A stretch of DNA of 36,701 nucleotides from Elsinoe ampelina (lineage: Eukaryota): positions 852,178 to 888,878 of the forward strand of contig ML992509.1 in NCBI GenBank assembly GCA_010093995.1, read 5' to 3'. This document shows positions 19,239-34,945 of this stretch, piece by piece (the first letter of the stretch is position 1; the number at the start of each line of letters is the position of its first letter). The notes below the pieces were generated by a model. That model saw only the letters and a list, made by a program, of their open reading frames with translations. It was not told the origin of the DNA and made no database searches. Made by a program: the position numbers and the translations under genes.

Positions 19239-20590
19239 ATGTCACGAAGCAGACAACCACGAGCAAACCACAACCAGGATGCTGATGAGGAGAAGAGACT
19301 ATGGGGTCAGATCAAGGCTGAGGCAAAGAAGATTGATTCTATGATCGTAAGAAAGAAGTCCATTGCTCGTACAGTCAGAAGACTGAGTCATGAAGGCCAG
19401 ATGTGGGTCCATAGGCAATGAGATTGTTGAGATTGAGAAGCAACAGGCAGCTCTGCTAGGTCCGTATGTGCTCTTGATAACGCAGCCGCAAACTAACCGT
19501 ATGTCCGAAGATGCGGACAAGCTGTCCGATGCGGCACTCGACTCGAAGCTAGAGGAGCTGTACCGAGAGAACGTCCGGCTGAGCGAGCAAATACAGCACA
19601 TGATCGAAGGTAAATCAGACGAGGTGAATCTGTTGGATAACATTCGGATTCTCCAAGCACTGCGAGAGTCTGCCGAGGAGTCCGTCCCTCTCAGTGCTAG
19701 TTCTGTTAGAAGCGCATCAGCAAATGGTGGAGCCAAGTCACGCGCGGCGCTAGTGGCTAAACGGAAAGCCAACGGCAATCCTGGCAGTGCGATTACAGAT
19801 GATGGCGACGACAGTACTATCTCATCTCCTCGAGGCTCCGGTCGACTCAATGCAGTACCAGGAAGGGAGAAGTCGGCACGTGGGAGCAGCGCCGCCCCTA
19901 GCATGCGAGAAGCAAGCGTCAAGATCGAAGATGGGGCGGAGAGCGTCACTAGCAGTGTCGACGGCGGAGGTACTGCCTCCAAGCCAGCATCTGAAGCCGG
20001 CAACCTGGCCATTAACATATCAAGTAAGGAGACGCGCGGGCCATTGTCTGCGACGTCCAACACTTCAGGAACACCTCTGACGCCGACAGCCACACAACAA
20101 GCACGACAAGCGTTGATACCAGGGGCCATGGTCTTCTATCGTAACAAGGGTCGAGCACAAGAGGGCGAAGGTATACTATGCCGAGTCACAAGTGTCATAG
20201 GCGAGGGCAAGCAGAGACGTTATGAGATACAAGATGCCGATCCAGATCCACAACCTGGCACCGGCGAGATCCCGGCTCCGTATCGGGCCAGTGTCAGTCA
20301 TCTATACGCTATCCCCGCCTCCAATGCTCTGCCTGATCTGGCAAAAGGAAGGAATGTGCTGGCGCAGTATCCCGTAAGTACAACATGGTTGCCTATGATC
20401 ACCTGGCTCATGTGCATAGGACACAACCACCTTCTATAAAGCAGAAGTCTCCACTCCCTGGCGAGCTAAGGATCTCTCCGGAGAGAAAGGCGCTTACGTC
20501 CGACTTCGCTTCGAAGGCGAAATGGAAGAAGCCAAAGAGATGGAGGTCGAGCGACGATTCGTTGTGCCTGACCCGCCAACATCGAAGTGA
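19239..20590 (+). CDS. SGF29: SAGA complex subunit Sgf29 (tandem Tudor domain)
   Basis: N-terminal coiled coil; EGILCRV...RYEIQDADPD...VLAQYP|DTTTFYKAEV...LRFEGE...EVERRFV; spliced, last exon ends at TGA 20590. Confidence 0.9.
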
Positions 20591-21076
20591 TGCCTCCGCG
20601 GCGACCGAGATGCCGAGAAGCATCAAACCGACCATTCATACCATCACTTGAATAAGAACAGCAGGATATTCGAAGGATGTTCAAAGACTACAAGAAAGTA
20701 GAAAAACGCTAGACCTGTCCAACCCGAGATGACCAAATGTCGGACAATTGAAGACTCAAGAGACAGCGTCCGAAGAAGAATTCCCCTTCTCGCTCGATCC
20801 AATGTCCGTGTATGCTTGGAGACAACTCCGTCTCCTGTATCCCATCTGCCCATCCATGCCCGACCCTTCTCCCCAATCATCACGACAATCCCAAACCCCA
20901 TCCCCGATCTAAGACACCACCCTCCGGCATCGTCGACGCTTCAACAACGAAACGAAAGTGAAAAGGGTATACAACTCTTCTCCCCTCCTGCCCCTCCCCG
21001 CTCGTGCGGGCCCAGAAATGACAACCTGTAACCAAAACCCCCCGGAAATCTATCACCTCTCCCAAGGCACGCAATA

Positions 21077-21777
<701 letters not shown>

Positions 21778-22490
21778 GGTGACGGTGGTGGGGTGTGAGT
21801 GGTTTGAGATGGGTTCGTCGCTTTCTCTCGTGGTGTGTATGCTCTTATATGCGCTTGCTCGTCAGGCCGCTTCAATCTCGGTGATGTTGTACAGGAGTGG
21901 TTTCAGATGATGCGAGGCGCTTGTTGCGGCTTTGGTCCTGGAAATGTCTGGGTAGTTGCAGTAATGTCGCTCGGAAGAACAAAAGGTCGCTTGGATCTTT
22001 GACCAGCCACCTCAAAGTCTTTCACCCGACTAGTCGTTGGCTATAGGGACGGTGGAACGTTGTGCGCGGCAATGTTGTAACGGGGAACAAAGTGGGCCGT
22101 TGGATCGGAGAGGCCTCAGGTACGGAAGGTCGAAATGTCGCGTGGATGTGGATGCGGTATTGCGCGAGGTGATTCAATGCTTCCGCGAGAGCTGCAGAGT
22201 GCGGCGGAGATGCTAATAGGACGCGAAATTTGGTCCCTGAAATGGTGTATCGCCTATCCCTATTGCCTGCAGTGCCTACTCATCAAGTTAGATGAGGCCG
22301 AGGCGGGAGCTGTCCACGCTGTCCAATCAGCCCCACCGGAAGCTCGAGTCTATTCAATATTCTGTCGGTTTCGCTCGATTCCGAATGGTGCTAGCCTAAT
22401 CGAGGAATAATCATCAGAGCTTGGACGGCATCATACATTCATGTCTTGACGAGGATTATTTTGTAGACATCATTTCATCTGTGACCGCTA

Positions 22491-23381
22491 TCATACAATC
22501 ATACCCTGAAAGGAGTCCTCTCCTTCTATCACGGTTCTTTTCACCTGGCTTTCCATATCTGCAGACATCGACTTCGACGTCAGGTCCGCCGTGGAGAGGC
22601 GCATGACATGCGTTCCTCCCTTTTGCAGCTCTGGCACCAGCCTCTCCCACAGATACTTGACCTGCTCATTCGCGTACCGGTAAGTGTTCTCCTTCATCGT
22701 GCAAAGCCCCTCGCAAAGAGCTCGCTCGATCTCCATCTCATCGCGTCCCTGCTCGACCAACGAAGCCCAGGTCTTCAACTCCTCGTAGCCAATCGCCTTC
22801 CATATTCCCCTGCCTCTCATGTCTCCGCCCGCGTCGCTCTCCATTCTCCAAAGCTCTCGAACCTCATCTAGCATCCCCGAGTGCAGCATGCCATCGAATC
22901 GTTTACTGATGCGCTCCCGCGTCACATTCTCTGGTGGGCATACCACAATGACCTGGAGATGGCGGCCCTGCCGAGATATCTCCCTCAAGACTGGTCCAGA
23001 GAAGCTCATACTCCCTCCGCAGACGACAACCGCTTTGCCCTTGCGTTGTATTTGGTCCATCGCAGTGAAGAAATCATCAAAGTAAGTTTTCGGCTCTTCG
23101 TCTGGAGGCAAGTAGGTCACAAGATGGTGCGGTGCCTGTGCCTTCTCCTCGGCCGAAGGAGCGGCGGTGAGGATAGGAGCATGATAGTAGACTTGTAAGG
23201 AGTCAAGAGAGATGACCTCCCCGTCAAGAGCCCGGGCGACTTGAATAGCGAGGGCAGTCTTGCCTGATGCCGTAGGGCCGAGGACAGCGATGATCGGAGG
23301 ACGCCCCAGGGTTGTCGTGGACAGTGGAACAGACATGGTGATAGGTTTTGAGAGAGATGCAATTGTCGGTACCGAACCCAT
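22491..23381 (-). CDS. ipt: Stand-alone isopentenyltransferase (IPT/DMATase fold), probably adenylate-type cytokinin synthase
   Basis: P-loop GPTASGKT, DSLQVY, PHHL, CGGSMSF, RISKRFDGML..GMLDEV, KAIGYEE and TYRYANEQ. Only 296 aa, without the large tRNA-binding insertion or C-terminal Zn finger of Mod5-type enzymes. Confidence 0.88.
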   Translation of the reverse strand: MGSVPTIASLSKPITMSVPLSTTTLGRPPIIAVLGPTASGKTALAIQVARALDGEVISLDSLQVYYHAPILTAAPSAEEKAQAPHHLVTYLPPDEEPKTYFDDFFTAMDQIQRKGKAVVVCGGSMSFSGPVLREISRQGRHLQVIVVCPPENVTRERISKRFDGMLHSGMLDEVRELWRMESDAGGDMRGRGIWKAIGYEELKTWASLVEQGRDEMEIERALCEGLCTMKENTYRYANEQVKYLWERLVPELQKGGTHVMRLSTADLTSKSMSADMESQVKRTVIEGEDSFQGMIV

Positions 23382-23797
23382 TCCTGAAGGCGAGATTAGG
23401 CAGGGGTTGGTCTGTGTCGGCGTTGTTAGACCTTTATGACATGGCTGCGGTACTTCCCCTTTTAAACGTCCAGATCACGAGGTAGTTGCGAGAGCCTGCA
23501 TTGACCGAAGATCATGTTTCAACCTTTCCAGAGCATATGACCTTAGTCGATGTGGACCACAGTCGACTTCTGAGTAGGGCGGGCCGTGCCCTGATTGCCG
23601 CTCGTAGCCTCCGACATACATACCATTTCGGTGAAATCCGTGGAGCCGTACTGTATGAACTAACGCACACGACTCGAGTGTATCCAGGTTTCCGTCCGTG
23701 TCGAGAGAACAGATCAAATGTCTCGGACCGAGCACGGGGCAGCAGGTGCCATGACTTGTTACGTGACGAATATATATAGGCTTTCCTGGCTGAGGAA
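23382..23797. promoter_or_regulatory. Divergent (bidirectional) promoter region shared by IPT and LOG
   Basis: 416 bp between head-to-head ATGs; TATATATA at ~23771-23778; palindrome CTCGGACCGAG at 23722-23732. Confidence 0.6.
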
Positions 23798-24628
23798 ATG
23801 GTCCCACCAGGGAAACATCCTACGCTCCAGGAGCTTGCTACAGGGACCATGACTTGCTCTCAGACCATCACACCCCAGGTGACAGGAGACGGACACGGAT
23901 CTAGGCCGTTGGCCATCTGCGTGTTCTGCGGTGAGCGACCCATCATTCGTACACGGCCTGAAAAGACCACTCATGCAATCCAGGAGCCAGCGATAGCATA
24001 AGACCTGCATTACCAAGAGCAGTTCAGGACCTTGCTAAGGGTATCGCCGCCAAGCACTGGTCGTTGGTCTATGGCGGCGGGACCAGGGGCCTCATGGGCC
24101 TCCTGGCAAGTGCCGTAGTATGGTCGTGTGGGGCCAAGTCGGTTCACGGAATCATACCTCGTGCCATGATCGAGACCGAAGGTGGCGTCGTCCAGGTGCC
24201 TAACGAGGATCGCTTCGGGCGAACGACTATCGTTTCGACCATGCATGAACGCAAGCTTCGAATGATGCAGGAGGCGGATGCATTTGTGGCGCTTCCTGGT
24301 GGATTTGGGACAATGGAGGAACTGTTCGAGATGACGACGTGGTGAATGATTCCGATGCGATGTAAGGTGGGGACAAACGAAATAGGCTAATGTTGGCCAC
24401 AGGAATCAGTTGGGTATCCACCACAAGCCGATTGTTGTTTTCAATATTGAGGGCTTCTTCGACGAAATGCTAGCTTGGGTGAAGAAGTCGGTGGAGTACG
24501 GTCTCATCCCCGCCGATCAGGCCTCCATCATAGTGGTAGCCGACACAGCTGATCGGGTACTCGAAGCGGTGGAGAACTACCGAAATGCCCAAGGACGATA
24601 TCTGCTCGATTGGAGTATCAGCAATTGA
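23798..24628 (+). CDS. log: LONELY GUY (LOG) family cytokinin riboside 5'-monophosphate phosphoribohydrolase
   Basis: Exons 23798-23930, 23984-24341 and 24403-24628 give ICVFCG|AS, LVYGGGTRGLMG, VHGIIP, MHERK, PGGFGTMEE (PGGxGTxxE motif) and TW|NQLGIHHKP. Confidence 0.93.
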
Positions 24629-25171
24629 AGTCGATAGCCAGACACTTGTCTGCAAAACTATGAAGCGAGAAGTTCTGAACGATTCAGATCAAAAAATCAC
24701 ATCACAGGGTTCCCGAAGCTTGACTGATGACACGCCAATCTCTTGTTGCCGGTCTTGTTTCTTGCCCTATAGCCTCGAATTCCCCGCGCTTTCGGCGAGA
24801 AAAGAGCGAGTTTTCGCGCTGAGAACAGGACTGCCTAGTGGTCTGGTGCATCCGAAGTATAAACCAGCCCAAAGCATGCTTGTCCCACACAAGCGTACTA
24901 AACCTAGGGCTTGCTTGGCAATGTATCTGTGTCGCAACGTGTCGCTGTTGGTCAGTAGGGCAGGAATTACACGTAAATTCTCGCGGGAGATTTGCCGCTA
25001 ACAGGGAATATTCGTCGATCAACGCACGAGGAGATGGCTTCTCAATGGGTGGAGAACCTCTTAATGCAACAGGACTCCAGTCTGCCATTCGCAGTCCTGT
25101 CGCCGTATGATTTTGACCACCGAAATGCGACCGTATGATGACCTCGCCTAGATTCGTACGCACCGGCAGAT

Positions 25172-25261
25172 GTCTAGCCAATGGAAACCTGTTTCCTGAG
25201 TCGGACCAGCTGACATGGAAACCTGTTTCCTGAGTCGGACCAGCTGATCCGTTGGCTAGAC
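25172..25261. repeat. 33-bp tandem duplication flanked by a 14-bp inverted repeat
   Basis: ATGGAAACCTGTTTCCTGAGTCGGACCAGCTGA at 25181-25213 and 25215-25247; arms GTCTAGCCAATGGA (25172-25185) and TCCGTTGGCTAGAC (25248-25261), one mismatch. Confidence 0.9.
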
Positions 25262-25608
25262 TGTAACACGCGCCAGTGGAGGAGCAGCAGCTTCAGATGT
25301 CGCAATCAAGGGCTACTATAAGATATGATCCAACAGTATGATCCCACGCCTCATGACTCCACCTCGCTGCCTCACCGTATGATCTAAACTCGGCGTTCAG
25401 TAGTCATAGGGCGCGGACCTTCGCTTCTACCCCCTGAAGCGACTAGCCACAGAGGACGAAGCATGATGGAGTGGGCGGAATGAGCCGATACGCATCCGTG
25501 CTACCGTGACCGTCATTCATCGGCTGACCTCTGTGCTACCGACGACGGTACTTGGCTTCCACAGTCCTCGTTCACATTCGTCCAGAGACTCCCAGATCGG
25601 ATGACAGC

Positions 25609-27309
25609 ATGTTAACGACAGTCGTTGTGGGCGTAGCAGCCTTCATGTTTGCAAGACTGCTCCTGTCGTGGCCGATATCCATAGCAGTACTAGCGAGCAT
25701 TCTTGCATGGCGCATCGGCACAAGAACCCAACAGTACCTCCGCCTGGGTCACATCCCAGGCCCCCCCACGACCGGCTGGCTTGAGATCTGGCATTCATGG
25801 GTGATCTTGCGGAACCAGTCGCACATCAAGTATGCAGAGGCGTGCGAGCGATATGGTCATCTCGCTCGTATTGGTCCGAACGACCTGATCACGGACTGTC
25901 CAGAGCTTCTGATACATATGAATTCTCCTCGGTCCGGGTACACCAAGACTGAATGGTTTTACAAGTCGACTCGACTTGAGCCAGGGAAGGATACTTGCTT
26001 CAGTCAGACTGATCCTGTGCTGCACCAGAAGCGGAGGGCGCAGTTGGCAGCAGGAGTGAGTGAAGGCGACTGCATGTGTACCAGACAGATGATTGACATA
26101 TACCAGTACTCAGGGAAGGACAATCCATTGCTAGAGTCAAAGATTGACGAGCACGTGACTGACCTGGTAGCCCTCTTGCGGAGGTTTGCCGCGAGTGGCG
26201 GCAAAGTGGACATGGGTCGAGTCTGCCAGTATTATTCCCTGGACGTCATCACAGACATTGGCTTCGGCGCCTCCTTTGACGACCTCAAAGATGGCACCGA
26301 TAACTTTGGATACCTCAAGACACTCGAACAGACTCTTGCACAGGTGGCATCCAGTTCAGCAACAGGTCTGTCAAGGTTGCTGCAGTATGACTGGTTCGCA
26401 AGTCGCGTATTACCCACAGGCGATGAATCGGAAGGTATGGGAAGGATTGTCCAGTAAGCTCAGATGGCCTGATCGCTGCGGAATCGTGCTGATAGTGCCA
26501 GAATCGCCCGGAGAACTATTCAGGAAAGATTCCGGACTGTCAAGGAGGATTCTGGGGATATGGTGTCCTCGTTCAAGAGGAAGGGACTGACTGAGGAAGA
26601 GATAGTGACAGAGTCCCTCTTGACTTTCGTGGCTGGCAGTGACACAGTGTCGTCCTCGCTGCGAGCCATTCTGCTGTTCCTTGCCCAGCATGACCAGGTG
26701 TACGAGAGATTGCGAGCAGAGATCGCCAGCTTTGTGGTCGGGGCAAGTGTCATCTCAGACGCGGATGCTCAACGACTGCTCTGGCTCAACGCTGTGATCA
26801 AGGAGTCGCTCCGACTACATCCGCCCATCACTGACATAGTCCCTAAAACAGCACCAGCGCAGGGCGATACGGTCGAGATTGATGGAACAAGCTACTTTAT
26901 CCCGGGCGGAACCAATGTAGGCTACTCAGCTTGGTCCCTCCATCGGCGGAAGGACATCTTCGGCGAAGACTCCGGAAACTTCAAACCAGAGCGATGGCTG
27001 GCGGAAGGTAATGATGAAGCTCAGTTGGTCAGGAGAAACAAGGTCTTCGATCTCATGTTCGGATCTGGACGCCATCAATGCCTGGGAAAGCAGATCGGCT
27101 TGATGGAGCTGCGGAAAGCTGTAGTTGAGGCAAGCTCTATCCGAGTACAGGAGCTTATTGATCCGTCACTGACCATTCCACAGATCACCCGATGCTTTCG
27201 GTTGTCTGTGTGTAATACAAGAAGGCCGTGGAACGAGACCAATTATTTGGGGCTCTGGGTGGCGTCCGATTTCTGGATGAAGGTGTCGCTCCTGGACGGA
27301 GTGGCATAA
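25609..27309 (+). CDS. Cytochrome P450 monooxygenase, candidate cytokinin trans-hydroxylase
   Basis: N-terminal TM, HIPGP, ARIGPNDL, AGSDT, ESLR, PERW and heme motif FGSGRHQCLG; introns 26056-26106, 26454-26501 and 27130-27183 (GC-AG). The P450 call is firm; the substrate is inferred from context. Confidence 0.92.
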
Positions 27310-27939
27310 CGCAGCGTGTGGGACTGTAGCTATCTTGCAGGAATGACCATTCGTGATATTCGTATTGCCACGCCAGATCCATCGTACCAAGTGCTCTTTC
27401 ATCCGTTGATAATAGGTGGCACGGAATTCTAGGTCCTTCTAAAATCGCAATCTCGGTGCGCTCTGTTGTAATGGAAGACTGGTACAGCTTCTCTGGTACT
27501 GAAGAACTGGTACTGATGAGTCAGCGCACGCACAGTAGATAATCGGTAATTGTAACTCTCTGAATGAATTACACGTCTCTCGATCCGATTTGCCAATTAC
27601 AACACGCTCCATCACCATGCCCACACGGAAGTGCATGTATCGAATTGGCCAAGAGGCTCCTCAACGGTCCTAACGACCACACCGGAGAAGCAAAACCGAG
27701 CCGACTTTGGCTCATACTTGGCGATGCAAGACGATATACACCAACGGTTGCACCTTAACGGCGTACCAGAAGCAGAGACAATGTACATGTTAAGGTCATC
27801 CATACCGCGTGCATGGCACGTGTCCCATAACCAACCCCGGCGCACGTCATGCCAAATGTCCGTGCTATGCTCCCCTGTCTATAGTACAACACCCAAGAGT
27901 CGAGTAATGCCCTGCCCTTGCCACGCCATGCTGCACCAA

Positions 27940-28993
27940 TCATGTCAACGTTCGCATAACGCCCTCGAATGCCACCAATGCCATAGCGTTCGCTGGGAAC
28001 GCCCGCAAGAAACATGGTACAAAACCTCGCCAGTATCCTCTGAAGCCACCTTCGCGCCCCACTGCCACGGCTGCATCTCGCCAGTTGTAGTACCTCCTTC
28101 TACCGTCGAGCTGGTCCGTCATGATGCGCTGCTTGATCACGTCGGAGGGGTAGCTGGTCATCCAGAATACCTGGGCGCTTAGGCCGCCGGCCCAGAAATT
28201 GATGGCGGGGTTTGATAATGAGGTGTTCTCCTTGAAGAAACGATTGAGGAGGTCGTAGGATCCCCACCAGAAACAGAAGAATGTGCGGAAGATGAGGGTA
28301 GCGCTCAAGCCATGGTAGAGTCCAGCTATGCCGTGCTGTTGGAAGATCTTTCTCGTGCAGTCGATTGGTCCAGCGTAGAGGCGCTGTGCCTTGTTGGCCG
28401 CATACTGGACCTGTAACCGTGCTTTGACATGCTCGATTGGGGCAGCGATGAACGACACTGTCCATCCCGCCATAATTCCTGCAGCTGCATGTCCAATCGT
28501 CGGTAATCGCTCATCCCGTACTTGGAGGAAGGACGTGTTCGAGGTCGTGACGGTCCTCGTCCGTAGTGGTTGGAAGAAGTTCTCGTTCAACAGCCGTCGG
28601 TATAGTGTGAGCGACCCCAGCATCAAGCTGTCCATGAACATCCATCCCACCAATGGAGGCGTTGCACCCTTGTAGAGACCCGACGCTCCTTCTTTCCGTA
28701 ACGTCTGCAGCAGACATTCTAGTGGTCCTCTAAACTGTGCTCTCTCTGACGTCTGTAACCGGACCTTTATCGTATCGAACGGGTGGCCAACTAGGGAGGA
28801 TCAGTACCCCGCTCTGTGTGACAGTGGTATAGCAGGATCGCTTACCGCTCAACTTCGCGATACCACTGAAGACGCCGGCGACGAAGCCCTTGTAGTTGTT
28901 GTCCGGCACGGTGACGGCCTTGTGCGGTTGCGGTAATTGTATCTTTGGTGCTGCTTGAGCATTTGGGATGTCCTCCCTCACCGACGCCGACAT
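27940..28993 (-). CDS. Mitochondrial carrier protein (YMC1/carnitine-acylcarnitine/amino-acid carrier-like)
   Basis: Three carrier signature motifs: HPFDTIKVRLQ, APIEHVKARLQ and YPSDVIKQRIM; ends RAFPANA; one intron near 28791-28845. Confidence 0.93.
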
Positions 28994-29934
28994 CGGATTA
29001 ATGACTTTGTATGCGACGTCTTGTCAGCAGTCATGCCGCCTCAAGATGAACACTGGTAGGCAAGGTTGAGAGAGTGTAGGGTACAAGATTATATTAAATA
29101 TGCAAAACGCGAAACACTCACTTCGGAGAGCGAGCTTACAAAAAGTCAAGGTGATCGACAACGACCTCCAGATCGCGACTAGGAACGCTTGGTGACGACA
29201 CCAATTGTAGATTCGGCGCCGACCAATCGCGGAGGAGCAATTCTTCTCCGACCGCAGATATCTCCGTTAAGTCCACTGGCTTTGTGTCAGCTTGTGTGTA
29301 GGGAGAAAGAGATTTATTACTGCCTAATCCACCAAACTAAGGTAGATTGTAACTACATAAATACTTAACCTAATAAACTAAGAGATAACTAAATTAATAG
29401 AACTCCTAAATAACAACAGATTAAGACAATAACTATCTAATTTANNNNNNNNNNNNNNNNNNNNNNNNNNNNNNNNNNNNNNNNNNNNNNNNNNNNNNNN
29501 NNNNNNNNNNNNNNNNNNNNNNNNNNNNNNNNNNNNNNNNNNNNNNNNNNNNNNNNNNNNNNNNNNNNNNNNNNNNNNNNNNNNNNNNNNNNNNNNNNNN
29601 NNNNNNNNNNNNNNNNNNNNNNNNNNNNNNNNNNNNNNNNNNNNNNNNNNNNNNNNNNNNNNNNNNNNNNNNNNNNNNNNNNNNNNNNNNNNNNNNNNNN
29701 NNNNNNNNNNNNNNNNNNNNNNNNNNNNNNNNNNNNNNNNNNNNNNNNNNNNNNNNNNNNNNNNNNNNNNNNNNNNNNNNNNNNNNNNNNNNNNNNNNNN
29801 NNNNNNNNNNNNNNNNNNNNNNNNNNNNNNNNNNNNNNNNNNNNNNNNNNNNNNNNNNNNNNNNNNNNNNNNNNNNNNNNNNNNNNNNNAGGCTATTAGC
29901 CTCCTCTACTATATAGCTTACTTAGTAGTCTCTA

Positions 29935-31714: not shown

Positions 31715-32374
31715 NNNNNNNNNNNNNNNNNNNNNNNNNNNNNNNNNNNNNNNNNNNNNNNNNNNNNNNNNNNNNNNNNNNNNNNNNNNNNNNNNNNNNN
31801 NNNNNNNNNNNNNNNNNNNNNNNNNNNNNNNNNNNNNNNNNNNNNNNNNNNNNNNNNNNNNNNNNNNNNNNNNNNNNNNNNNNNNNNNNNNNNNNNNNNN
31901 NNNNNNNNNNNNNNNNNNNNNNNNNNNNNNNNNNNNNNNNNNNNNNNNNNNNNNNNNNNNNNNNNNNNNNNNNNNNNNNNNNNNNNNNNNNNNNNNNNNN
32001 NNNNNNNNNNNNNNNNNNNNNNNNNNNNNNNNNNNNNNNNNNNNNNNNNNNNNNNNNNNNNNNNNNNNNNNNNNNNNNNNNNNNNNNNNNNNNNNNNNNN
32101 NNNNNNNNNNNNNNNNNNNNNNNNNNNNNNNNNNNNNNNNNNNNNNNNNNNNNNNNNNNNNNNNNNNNNNNNNNNNNNNNNNNNNNNNNNNNNNNNNNNN
32201 NNNNNNNNNNNNNNNNNNNNNNNNNNNNNNNNNNNNNNNNNNNNNNNNNNNNNNNNNNNNNNNNNNNNNNNNNNNNNNNNNNNNNNNNNNNNNNNNNNNN
32301 NNNNNNNNNNNNNNNNNNNNNNNNNNNNNNNNNNNNNNNNNNNNNNNNNNNNNNNNNNNNNNNNNNNNNNNNNN

Positions 32375-34945
32375 ATATTAATAAAGCGCTAGGTAGACTA
32401 GTTAACACTATCTATATTGTCTACCTTAATAATATTCTTATCTATAGTAACTTAAGAGAGAACTATATATATTATATATATAAGATTCTAGCGAGGCTAT
32501 AGAAGTTTACTTTATATACTAGCCTTAAGAAATATAAATTCTTTACTAAGGAGGTAGAATTCCTTAGCTATATTATCTCTACTATAGGTGTCTCGATAGA
32601 TCTAAGTAGAGTAACTATAATTAAGAATTAGCTAAGGCTAAAGAGTTATTATAAAGTCTAGTAGTTTACTAGCTTTATAAATTTCTACTACTACTTTATA
32701 TAGTATTACTCTAAGATTATTACTTCTCTCTCTAGCCTCCTTAAAGGCTTAGTTAAAGGTCGTAAGTATAGCTCTTTTATATAGAGTATAAGTAAATAGT
32801 AGACGTTTAAGGACATTAGAGACATATTTACGCGTACCTCTATTCTTCGCTACTATAATTCTATACTACCTCTATATATTAAAAGTAATATATTAAAGTT
32901 TATAGTAGTAGCAATTCTATCCTAACTATTTAATAGTACTTAGTACCTAATAGCCTTTTAGTTAAGGAAGTTTATCCTAGTAGAGTATAACTATAAGATA
33001 TATAACTAAGAGTTATTAGTAATTATATACGTATTTAAGTAATAGTAACACTACCTCGAAGGTGCTATATATATAATTTATATACTTACTAACTATAATA
33101 ACCTCCGAGAATTTATAAAGCTAAAGTAGCTAAATAGCTAATAAGCCTACTAGGCTACCTTCCTTACTGCTTTTAACTTTATAATAGAGTATTAGCTAGG
33201 CATAAGGAACCTAGCTAACGCGCCCTTAAGACGCCTTAACTATATAACTAAGAAGTAGAAGGTATCTTACCTTCTTCTAACTCTTTAGAATAAGCTCCGT
33301 ATCTAGGACTAGACTACTAACTCTAAAGAAACTACTCCGCTAGTTAGATATATTTATGCTATATATAAGGCTACTCTAGGATATACCTAGGCTACCTATA
33401 TACCGTATAAAGGTAAAACTTCTTCTAAGAACTCCTAGGGTCTTATAACGACCTAGTAAGTCGCTATTATAGCAATAGTAAGAGAGGATCTCTTTAAGGA
33501 TCTATCTACCGATCTATTATTAGTAGTAGAGCTACTATAAAGATAAGACTCTAAGATTATAAAGCTACGTTCGTAAGCGTCGAGTAGTAGAGACAAGAGT
33601 AAGACACTATAGAATCTATAAGATAACCTCCTATTCTACTATAATACGCTAGTTATCCCGAATAATAGTGCTATTAAGGCGTAGGTACTATATATATACT
33701 ATAATAGTAAATAGGCTAGTTATTTTAGTAAGGATAAGATACTTAAGCTTCTCTTATAGAAATACTTCTAGTAAACTATAAGAAAGAATATTAATAACTA
33801 CGTATAGTTATACTAAGTTTGCTAGAAGTATAAAGCGTACTACTATTACCTCTATAGCGAGTTACGTATACTACTAATACTAGATCGCCTATAGTAAGAA
33901 ATTATAATAGATTTTATTACTAACCTACTACTAAGTAAGTAAGGTAATAGCGTCTATAATACAGTGCTAGTAATTATAGACTAATACACTAAGATGTTAC
34001 TATATATTTCTACTACTAAGAAGTGTATATCTATAGAGCTTATAGAGATTCTATATAACTACGTAATTTGCTACTATAGTATTCCTAGGGGAATAGTAAG
34101 CAATTAAGGATTAGTCTTTACTAGCTAGTTCTAGAGTAAATTCTATTACGAAACGCATATAAAACGTAGGCTTAGTATAGCCTTCTACCTATAGATAGAT
34201 AGTTAAACTAAATAGTAAAACTAGACGTTAGAGTAGTATCTAAGGTACTACTATATAGAACTATAGAACGACTAGGCTAAGTGTCTATTATAAGCGGAGT
34301 TCGTAAGCAATAATAGCATCTATACTATACTACGTATAAGCCTCTTCTAAATAATATATAGCTACTACTCTAAGTTAGAGGTAATAGCTATTAAGCCTTA
34401 GAATAAGACTTTAGAGGGAAGAGTACTAGTAGCATTAGAGTTAGTATAACACTTACAAGACATATATATAAAGCTAGTAGAGTAATAGAAAGAGACTTCC
34501 GCCTACTAGGCTAAGTATTATAATAGGAAGTATATGCTAAAGGTATATAGTGTAGGTAACTTAGTACTACTCTCGGCTAAGAACTTATAGCTACCTATAC
34601 TAAAGAAGAAGATAGAACTATAATTCCTTAGTCTATTTTATATACTTAATGTAATTAGATTATAGGCGTATTACCTAGCCTTACTAAGTTAGTATCGTAT
34701 CTATAATGTCTTTTATATATCTCTTCTTAAACTATAGATAGGTAGAACTAGTAAGGAGCTAGAAGAAAGTATACCTCTCGTAGATAAAGTAGACAAGTAG
34801 ATAGTAGAGAAAATCCTAAGTAGAAGAACTATAAAGGGTAAGGTTTTCTACTTAGTAAAGTAGAAGGACTAGCCTACTAAGTTTAATAGCTAGGAACTAG
34901 AAGAGAATTGCGTAAATATAAGAGAGCTAATTACTATATATAAGT
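32375..34945 (+). pseudogene. RIP-degraded pol (RT, RNase H, integrase, chromodomain)
   Basis: VYLNNILIYS (YLDD, 32422-32433), KEVEFL, TNYNNL (TDHNNL), NLANAPLRR, EIIIDFI, SIAFYL*IDS*TK (STAFHPQTDGQTE) and *IVEKIL...YLVK*K...S*EL (chromodomain); many TAG/TAA stops. Confidence 0.92.

Follow-up and report, generated by a model that had tools for sequence, protein, structure and literature searches.

Three adjacent genes on contig ML992509.1 of the fungus Elsinoe ampelina encode an isopentenyltransferase (IPT), a protein of the Lonely Guy (LOG) type and a cytochrome P450, and on balance we favour the reading that they constitute a three-gene, tRNA-independent cytokinin biosynthesis locus of unfused form. 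The cluster spans positions 22491-27309 of the window, by which we mean the whole stretch of 36,701 nt that was analysed and whose numbering is used throughout, and each gene has an intact frame. The gene-rich part of the window is fungal nuclear DNA with a GC content of 51-59% and spliceosomal introns. The three genes, and the spacer between the first two, are as follows.

22491-23381, minus strand: IPT, single exon, 296 aa; from the open reading frame (ORF) and Pfam, with unspliced RNA contigs in 4/4 runs
23382-23797, no strand: IPT-LOG spacer, with 416 bp separating the start codons; taken to be a bidirectional promoter
23798-24628, plus strand: LOG, exons 23798-23930, 23984-24341 and 24403-24628, introns of 53 and 61 nt
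25609-27309, plus strand: P450, exons 25609-26055, 26107-26453, 26502-27129 and 27184-27309, 515 aa

This is the arrangement put forward in a preliminary description made from the letters of the DNA: three adjacent intact genes, with IPT on the minus strand, a plus-strand LOG 416 bp away and the P450 about 1 kb further on. ORFs, Pfam matches and spliced RNA-derived contigs all bear it out, and the distance from the LOG stop codon to the P450 ATG measures 980 bp. The unfused, divergent architecture that was claimed for IPT and LOG also stands, since the two genes lie on opposite strands and must therefore be truly separate; in one sequencing run (X8, below) their contigs are separate too.

In the literature searched, fungal de novo cytokinin synthesis is described only as the fused IPT-LOG proteins of Claviceps and Fusarium together with a P450 (PMC6337686, PMC7913349), and one paper speaks of an 'evolutionary relic' of some Sordariomycetes (PMC6337686; PMC7913349). 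What appears to be new here is that a known IPT family occurs outside a fusion, its gene standing alone beside a LOG from another lineage. The literature searched yielded no stand-alone fungal adenylate IPT and no Elsinoe cytokinin gene, although Hinsch 2015 and Sorensen 2018 may say more.

The isopentenyltransferase and its family

The window IPT retains the P-loop, GPTASGKT, and the catalytic motif SLDSLQVYY, and four of its residues, P36, K41, D60 and S61, are invariant in the IPT family alignment. Pfam recognises both IPPT (2.2e-28, 100 bits) and PF01745 IPT (3.5e-10, 40.1 bits against a cut-off of 20). In the database version of the protein, P0001, translation begins at Met16, which leaves 281 aa.

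Its relationship to the tRNA-modifying enzymes is close, with the P-loop and the DSxQVY motif in common, and the best sequence match of known structure is yeast Mod5 (3eph, 2e-24). This match is split in two pieces, however, residues 30-126 aligning with Mod5 4-102 and residues 150-269 with Mod5 198-310, so that Mod5 103-197, some 95 residues, is represented by just 23 residues of the IPT, and nothing past Mod5 310 is matched. The same clean gap is present in 10/10 family members in a MAFFT alignment, where it corresponds to ∼72 residues of MiaA or ∼135 residues of a chytrid Mod5. The protein stops after the core, and Pfam finds no zinc-finger family in it. The insertion domain of Mod5 and MiaA clamps the anticodon stem-loop of the tRNA, and the C-terminus of eukaryotic Mod5 is a zinc finger. 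Against the NCBIfam miaA equivalog the window IPT scores 127.2 bits, under the cut-off of 148.65, as does a fused Fusarium protein at 130.1 bits. Judged by its sequence, the window IPT is not a tRNA enzyme of the Mod5/MiaA type, for both the insertion domain and the C-terminal extension are absent. The preliminary description had named a Mod5 that prenylates only tRNA as an outcome that would refute it; the missing parts, the score under the miaA cut-off and the grouping of the protein with the IPT-LOG family described below speak against an enzyme of that type.

An AlphaFold model of the IPT, built from 17 sequences, has a predicted local distance difference test score (pLDDT) of 84.4 and a predicted TM-score (pTM) of 0.81. 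It fits best those MiaA chains that lack a modelled insertion domain (3crm, TMt 0.81; 2qgn, 0.79), compared with TMt values of 0.50-0.65 for full MiaA and Mod5 chains, and it resembles the compact fold of the hop adenylate IPT 3a8t (TM 0.69/0.71). Fold searching gave its best matches to 3exa and 3eph at ∼1e-13 and to Tzs at 1e-06. In sequence searches 3a8t was found at 6.7e-14, more weakly than Mod5 at 2e-24, and Tzs was undetected at E≤0.01. Two results from the ESM Atlas serve as leads only: by features the IPT is nearest to plant adenylate IPTs (0.97, 27/30 matches), and by structure a 117-member cluster of Ascomycota IPT+LOG proteins is listed.

How large is the family to which this protein belongs? 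A word-seeded search found a single close relative, P0002 (66% identity), all other matches being bacterial MiaA proteins aligned over about one third of the query at ∼1e-25. An exhaustive HMMER search was more revealing, returning 17 of 1.84 billion representatives at E≤1e-30 with end-to-end, single-stretch matches; below these comes a gap, followed by two-stretch matches of the Mod5/MiaA type at ∼1e-25. The 17 comprise short IPTs of 260-324 aa plus two proteins of 469 and 489 aa. When P0241-P0256 were examined with Pfam (16 of 19 scanned), the two long proteins, P0253 and P0254 (2/16), proved to contain both IPPT and Lysine_decarbox, implying that they are IPT-LOG fusions, and the other 14/16 contain IPT families only.

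Names for members of the family come from a profile search built from the HMMER family alignment A1, in which eleven proteins scored E≤1.8e-89 and the next 2.3e-48. The named fused members are from Fusarium oxysporum (484 aa), F. nematophilum, Ilyonectria and Claviceps africana (502 aa), and the named stand-alone members are from Venturia effusa (289 aa) and Sphaceloma murrayae (324 aa). The window IPT matches the IPT domain of the Claviceps africana protein with 35% identity over 252 colinear residues (E 7e-43) and is 37% identical to the F. oxysporum protein P0389.

Two of the family entries appear to carry pieces of neighbouring genes. P0397 of Clonostachys rhizophaga (676 aa) has an IPT, a LOG and a TRI-like/BAHD acyltransferase (PF02458, PF22664) and is probably a merged gene model, in which case an acyltransferase gene adjoins the IPT-LOG gene in that species. 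P0393 of Venturia effusa (289 aa) ends in a piece of COX7a (PF02238, 2.8e-09), likely through merging with a downstream COX7a gene, which implies that the same-strand neighbour of the Venturia effusa IPT is not a LOG.

Phylogenetic analysis, which the preliminary description had proposed as a check, places the window IPT with the IPT domains of the Claviceps and Fusarium IPT-LOG proteins. A quick tree had 52 rows, and a careful maximum-likelihood tree 40, of which 27 are members of the family, 9 are long proteins of the Mod5 type and 4 are MiaA proteins from bacteria; from the careful tree the Clonostachys chimera (676 aa) and part of the outgroups were dropped, and both trees are without plant or Agrobacterium IPTs. 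Of the long Mod5-type rows only P0283, from a chytrid, is named, and a eukaryotic origin was assumed for the others because they are 432-540 aa long. The IPT family forms one clade (100/100) on a stem of 1.06, branching among these long Mod5-type proteins. Within it, a 13-row clade (98/94) contains LOG-less proteins only, namely the Venturia group, several unnamed proteins and the window IPT with P0002; this last pair (100/100) is sister to Sphaceloma murrayae plus P0267 (95/89). The other clade, of 14 rows (90/81), contains all of the named fusions and all of the ORFs whose ends resemble the beginning of a LOG. The existence of a stand-alone clade implies that the split architecture is a feature of that clade and not a one-off.

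Transfer of the IPT gene from bacteria was also considered and is rejected, as the family branches among the long Mod5-type proteins and not with bacterial MiaA. By sequence the window IPT matches Mod5 better than the hop enzyme 3a8t, and by fold and Atlas features it resembles plant adenylate IPTs. Its origin looks independent of the plant and bacterial adenylate IPTs.

The LOG protein and the P450

The LOG gene encodes a product of 238 aa, or 221 aa if translation starts at the second Met, the form given in the database for P0121. That entry, named 'lysine decarboxylase-like protein [Elsinoe ampelina]', is 100% identical to it, start codon aside. The motifs YGGGTRGLMG and LPGGFGTMEE are present, and are invariant in the LOG alignment A2. 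TIGR00730 is matched with 176.9 bits (cut-off 96.35), and the bacterial equivalog NF058542 with 119.5, under its cut-off of 300. The best match in the Protein Data Bank (PDB) is 5ajt, 'phosphoribohydrolase Lonely Guy' (3.5e-45), with AtLOG 2a33 at 2.9e-42. By these measures the protein is of the canonical cytokinin riboside 5'-monophosphate phosphoribohydrolase type.

Its lineage differs from that of the fused proteins. In a tree of 47 rows, comprising named homologues and the LOG halves of seven fusions, the fused LOG domains make up a clade of their own (97), adjoining LOGs of Xanthoria and Truncatella. The window LOG is found in a separate 21-row clade (98) with proteins from Pyrenochaeta, Alternaria, Pseudovirgaria and a few from Fusarium, Neonectria, Colletotrichum and Pyricularia. 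It is 39% identical to the fused LOG domain of F. oxysporum, compared with 57-61% for free fungal LOGs. An LSGGYGT variant and an additional GxPGSGF stretch are common to the fused domains and 5ajt and are missing from the window LOG; in the Fusarium fusion the corresponding sequences are ALSGGYGT and GAPGSGF, whereas the window LOG has the canonical ALPGGFGT. When the window LOG was constrained to group with the fused domains, in a 34-row set from which long-branch rows had been dropped, the cost was 34.98 log-likelihood units, with a p-value of 0.0296 in the approximately unbiased (AU) test, a result that gives moderate support only because the group was named after the tree had been seen. 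Sampling of the LOG lineages is also uneven, since an exon of the window LOG itself seeded the word search that supplied the homologues. The phylogeny suggested for LOG in the preliminary description thus sets the window lineage apart from the fused LOG domains. Within the window lineage, cluster sizes are 1-3 members for the Fusarium, Neonectria and Colletotrichum entries and 6-79 for the Alternaria-like entries, which hints at a patchy, accessory distribution of this lineage in Sordariomycetes. Prediction of an IPT-LOG complex scored 0.00, which speaks neither for nor against an association.

The P450 has an N-terminal hydrophobic membrane anchor, the ESLR motif and the haem motif FGSGRHQCLG, and exon 3 matches Pfam p450 at 3.4e-43. 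Its nearest solved structures are generic class II enzymes, and the matches from the Atlas and the PDB are likewise generic.

Transcription and surroundings of the locus

Four sequencing runs from three studies were examined, X1 and X2 from an organism coded A and X6 and X8 from an organism coded B. None is registered as RNA, and their RNA origin was judged from the contigs, which must be derived from cDNA because they skip introns with GT..AG ends. In 4/4 runs the contigs skip every intron of the LOG gene (two) and of the P450 gene (three), including the third P450 intron (27130-27183), the ends of which are GC..AG and not GT..AG. The IPT is covered colinearly, with no joints or differences, in 4/4 runs, over ∼22456-23539 or at the least ∼22456-23420. 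All three genes are transcribed, and are spliced as modelled.

In run X8 the IPT, LOG and P450 each have a contig of their own, and depth is zero in the intergenic bin 23433-23773; 24797-25137 is without cover in X2 and X6. In run X1 a single contig of 2611 nt (22486-25210) joins the IPT, the spacer and the spliced LOG, and X2 is similar. As the contigs are unstranded, the joined contig may merely represent overlapping divergent transcripts; an alternative is a plus-strand transcript antisense to the IPT. All listed base differences and indels that set runs X2, X6 and X8 apart from the window fall in the flanks, at 20470-21460 and 27511-27960. Within the cluster genes (22456-27400) none is listed, despite cover in four runs.

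The cluster is bordered on each side by a gene with spliced RNA contigs.

20700-21770 (approximate), minus strand: left border, putative ARF-type small GTPase; introns 21232-21293 and 21597-21683 skipped in RNA contigs
27513-28846, minus strand: right border, mitochondrial carrier; Pfam Mito_carr 7.8e-54, RNA contig and intron

The left-hand gene we take to be of ARF type from our own reading of its spliced translation. Both flanking genes are housekeeping genes and lie outside the cluster, which makes up a compact island of 5 kb between them; no acyl- or glycosyl-transferase tailoring genes are present between these flanks.

The P450 and carrier genes converge, and the segment 27462-27608 between their 3' ends shows a summed contig depth of up to ∼2028 (X1), well in excess of the level around it; many contigs diverge there into unrelated sequence on both sides, resembling a dispersed repeat or an assembly knot. 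It contains no tRNA and no Rfam family, and ∼27400-27700 is without convincing terminal inverted repeats; scans of the whole window for tRNAs and Rfam families likewise gave no matches. Further to the right, the gene-rich DNA stops abruptly at ∼29200 and gives way to an AT-rich block with a GC content of about 23-36%, within which there are runs of N at ∼29446-29890 and ∼31716-32380. The cluster thus lies less than 2 kb from an AT-rich, gene-poor region.

A proposed split route to cytokinin and its alternatives

In the pathway that we propose, the short IPT, having no tRNA-gripping domain, would prenylate free AMP with dimethylallyl diphosphate (DMAPP) to give isopentenyladenine (iP) riboside monophosphate. 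AMP prenylation of this kind was measured for the homologous Claviceps IPT-LOG, and by homology it is quite likely for the window IPT. The divergent LOG would then strip off the ribose phosphate to leave free isopentenyladenine, and release of the free base by the adjacent LOG is probable, if a little less so. In the third and weakest step the P450 would hydroxylate the side chain to give a zeatin-type cytokinin, an assignment suggested by the position of its gene. The complete tRNA-independent pathway of the preliminary description is therefore upheld in part: the IPT family, the loss of the tRNA-gripping parts, and transcription and splicing all favour it, and its P450 step is one of position.

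The chemistry is familiar from several systems. In Claviceps purpurea the cluster consists of cpipt-log and cpp450 (Hinsch et al. 2015, as cited in PMC5203792, PMC5521058 and PMC7913349), and in Fusarium the CK1 and CK2 clusters consist of IPTLOG1/2 and P450-1/2 (Niehaus et al. 2016; PMC5203792). Overexpression of IPTLOG is reported to yield iP, and the addition of the P450 to yield trans-zeatin (tZ) (PMC5203792); CpIPT-LOG prefers DMAPP, with ADP and ATP being no substrates (PMC7913349). The Elsinoe locus resembles that of Claviceps in having the same insertion-less IPT family and in bringing IPT, LOG and P450 activities side by side, but its IPT and LOG are separate, on opposite strands, with the LOG from another lineage, and the organism belongs to the Dothideomycetes and not the Sordariomycetes. 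It likewise shares with Fusarium CK1/CK2 the IPT family and an adjoining P450, whereas the Fusarium enzymes are fused and belong to the sister IPT clade. The same predicted chemistry is found in plants, through adenylate IPT, CYP735A and LOG, and in bacteria with Tzs/Tmr and the fas genes of Rhodococcus. The plant genes, in contrast to those described here, are unclustered.

Several points weigh against a cytokinin locus. The P450 looks like a generic class II enzyme, and its cytokinin role, for which the argument is adjacency, has in our estimate somewhat less than an even chance. The branch leading to the window IPT and P0002 is long (1.35), and their identity to other family members is just 30-37%. 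The number of genuinely unfused family members is uncertain, because some representatives are probably truncated fusions: four of the 'stand-alone' ones (P0244, P0246, P0255 and perhaps P0391) end like RVVCLL, which may be compared with the start of the fused LOG, RVVCLFGGS, and such LOG-tailed short ORFs are probably fused genes cut at an intron. A metagenome scan with the IPT gave just 3 loci, all MiaA-like and matched over residues 12-157 at 37-49%. The upstream regions 23382-23797 and 24629-25608 share one 10-mer, compared with 0.74 expected from shuffles, and no word of 11 or more, and contig depth is unfit for ranking the genes or for claiming co-regulation. Finally, the fused Fusarium clusters are reported to be silent both in culture and during infection (PMC5203792, PMC6337686), implying that possession of a cluster need not mean delivery of the hormone.

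Could the P450 then be an unrelated bystander to a working isopentenyladenine module of IPT and LOG? The IPT and LOG have a 416-bp divergent promoter region in common, whereas the P450 is 980 bp further on with transcript contigs of its own, is without diagnostic similarity beyond its superfamily, and has no upstream words in common with the other genes beyond those of the shuffles. On the other hand, the characterised fungal IPT-LOG genes are all clustered with a P450 (PMC7913349, PMC5203792), and in Elsinoe the P450 lies inside the compact 5-kb island and is transcribed in the same 4 runs as its neighbours. We consider the bystander explanation unlikely. The divergence of the IPT and the unclassified P450 could also point to a locus that makes a non-classical N6-prenyl-adenine derivative, a cytokinin-like metabolite, with the P450 carrying out a different oxidation, and Fusarium pseudograminearum is cited in reviews for 'unique cytokinins' from such a cluster (PMC12066119). 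As the LOG is canonical and the housekeeping flanks enclose no extra tailoring genes, a product of this kind seems improbable. That the three genes adjoin one another by chance, the IPT being a decayed or repurposed Mod5 paralogue (one of its relatives is auto-named 'tRNA dimethylallyltransferase'), the LOG general-purpose and the P450 unrelated, is more improbable still, given that the IPT gene is transcribed with its catalytic motifs and confident fold kept, that its family includes enzymes shown to make cytokinin from AMP (PMC7913349, PMC5203792), and that chance adjacency of IPT and LOG is unlikely when members of the sister clade combine both activities in a single fused protein.

If the locus is a cytokinin locus, how did its split form arise? 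The preliminary description had offered three origins, ancestral, fissioned and independently assembled. That a fused gene simply split in two is unlikely, because the window LOG comes from a different lineage than the fused LOG domains. The stand-alone form is most simply ancestral, since the outgroup tRNA-IPTs are unfused and the LOG lineages differ. IPT would then have become coupled with LOG on two separate occasions, through clustering in the lineage of the window and through fusion in the Hypocreales. We tentatively suggest, as a scenario that is possible without yet being probable, that an adenylate IPT arose once from Mod5 by loss of the tRNA-binding parts and was coupled to LOG on two occasions, and that the scab and anthracnose fungi Elsinoe/Sphaceloma and Venturia, of the Dothideomycetes, keep the pre-fusion form and make host-manipulating cytokinins de novo.

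This pre-fusion reading, if true, extends de novo cytokinin synthesis in fungi to a second fungal class, and more plant pathogens may make their own cytokinin. The locus offers a natural comparison of split and fused enzymes for the evolution of metabolic coupling. Elsinoe ampelina, a fungus of the grapevine-pathogen type, is reported to infect mainly young tissues (PMC8295512), and the locus allows knockout and expression tests of the role of cytokinin in diseases of young, growing tissue.

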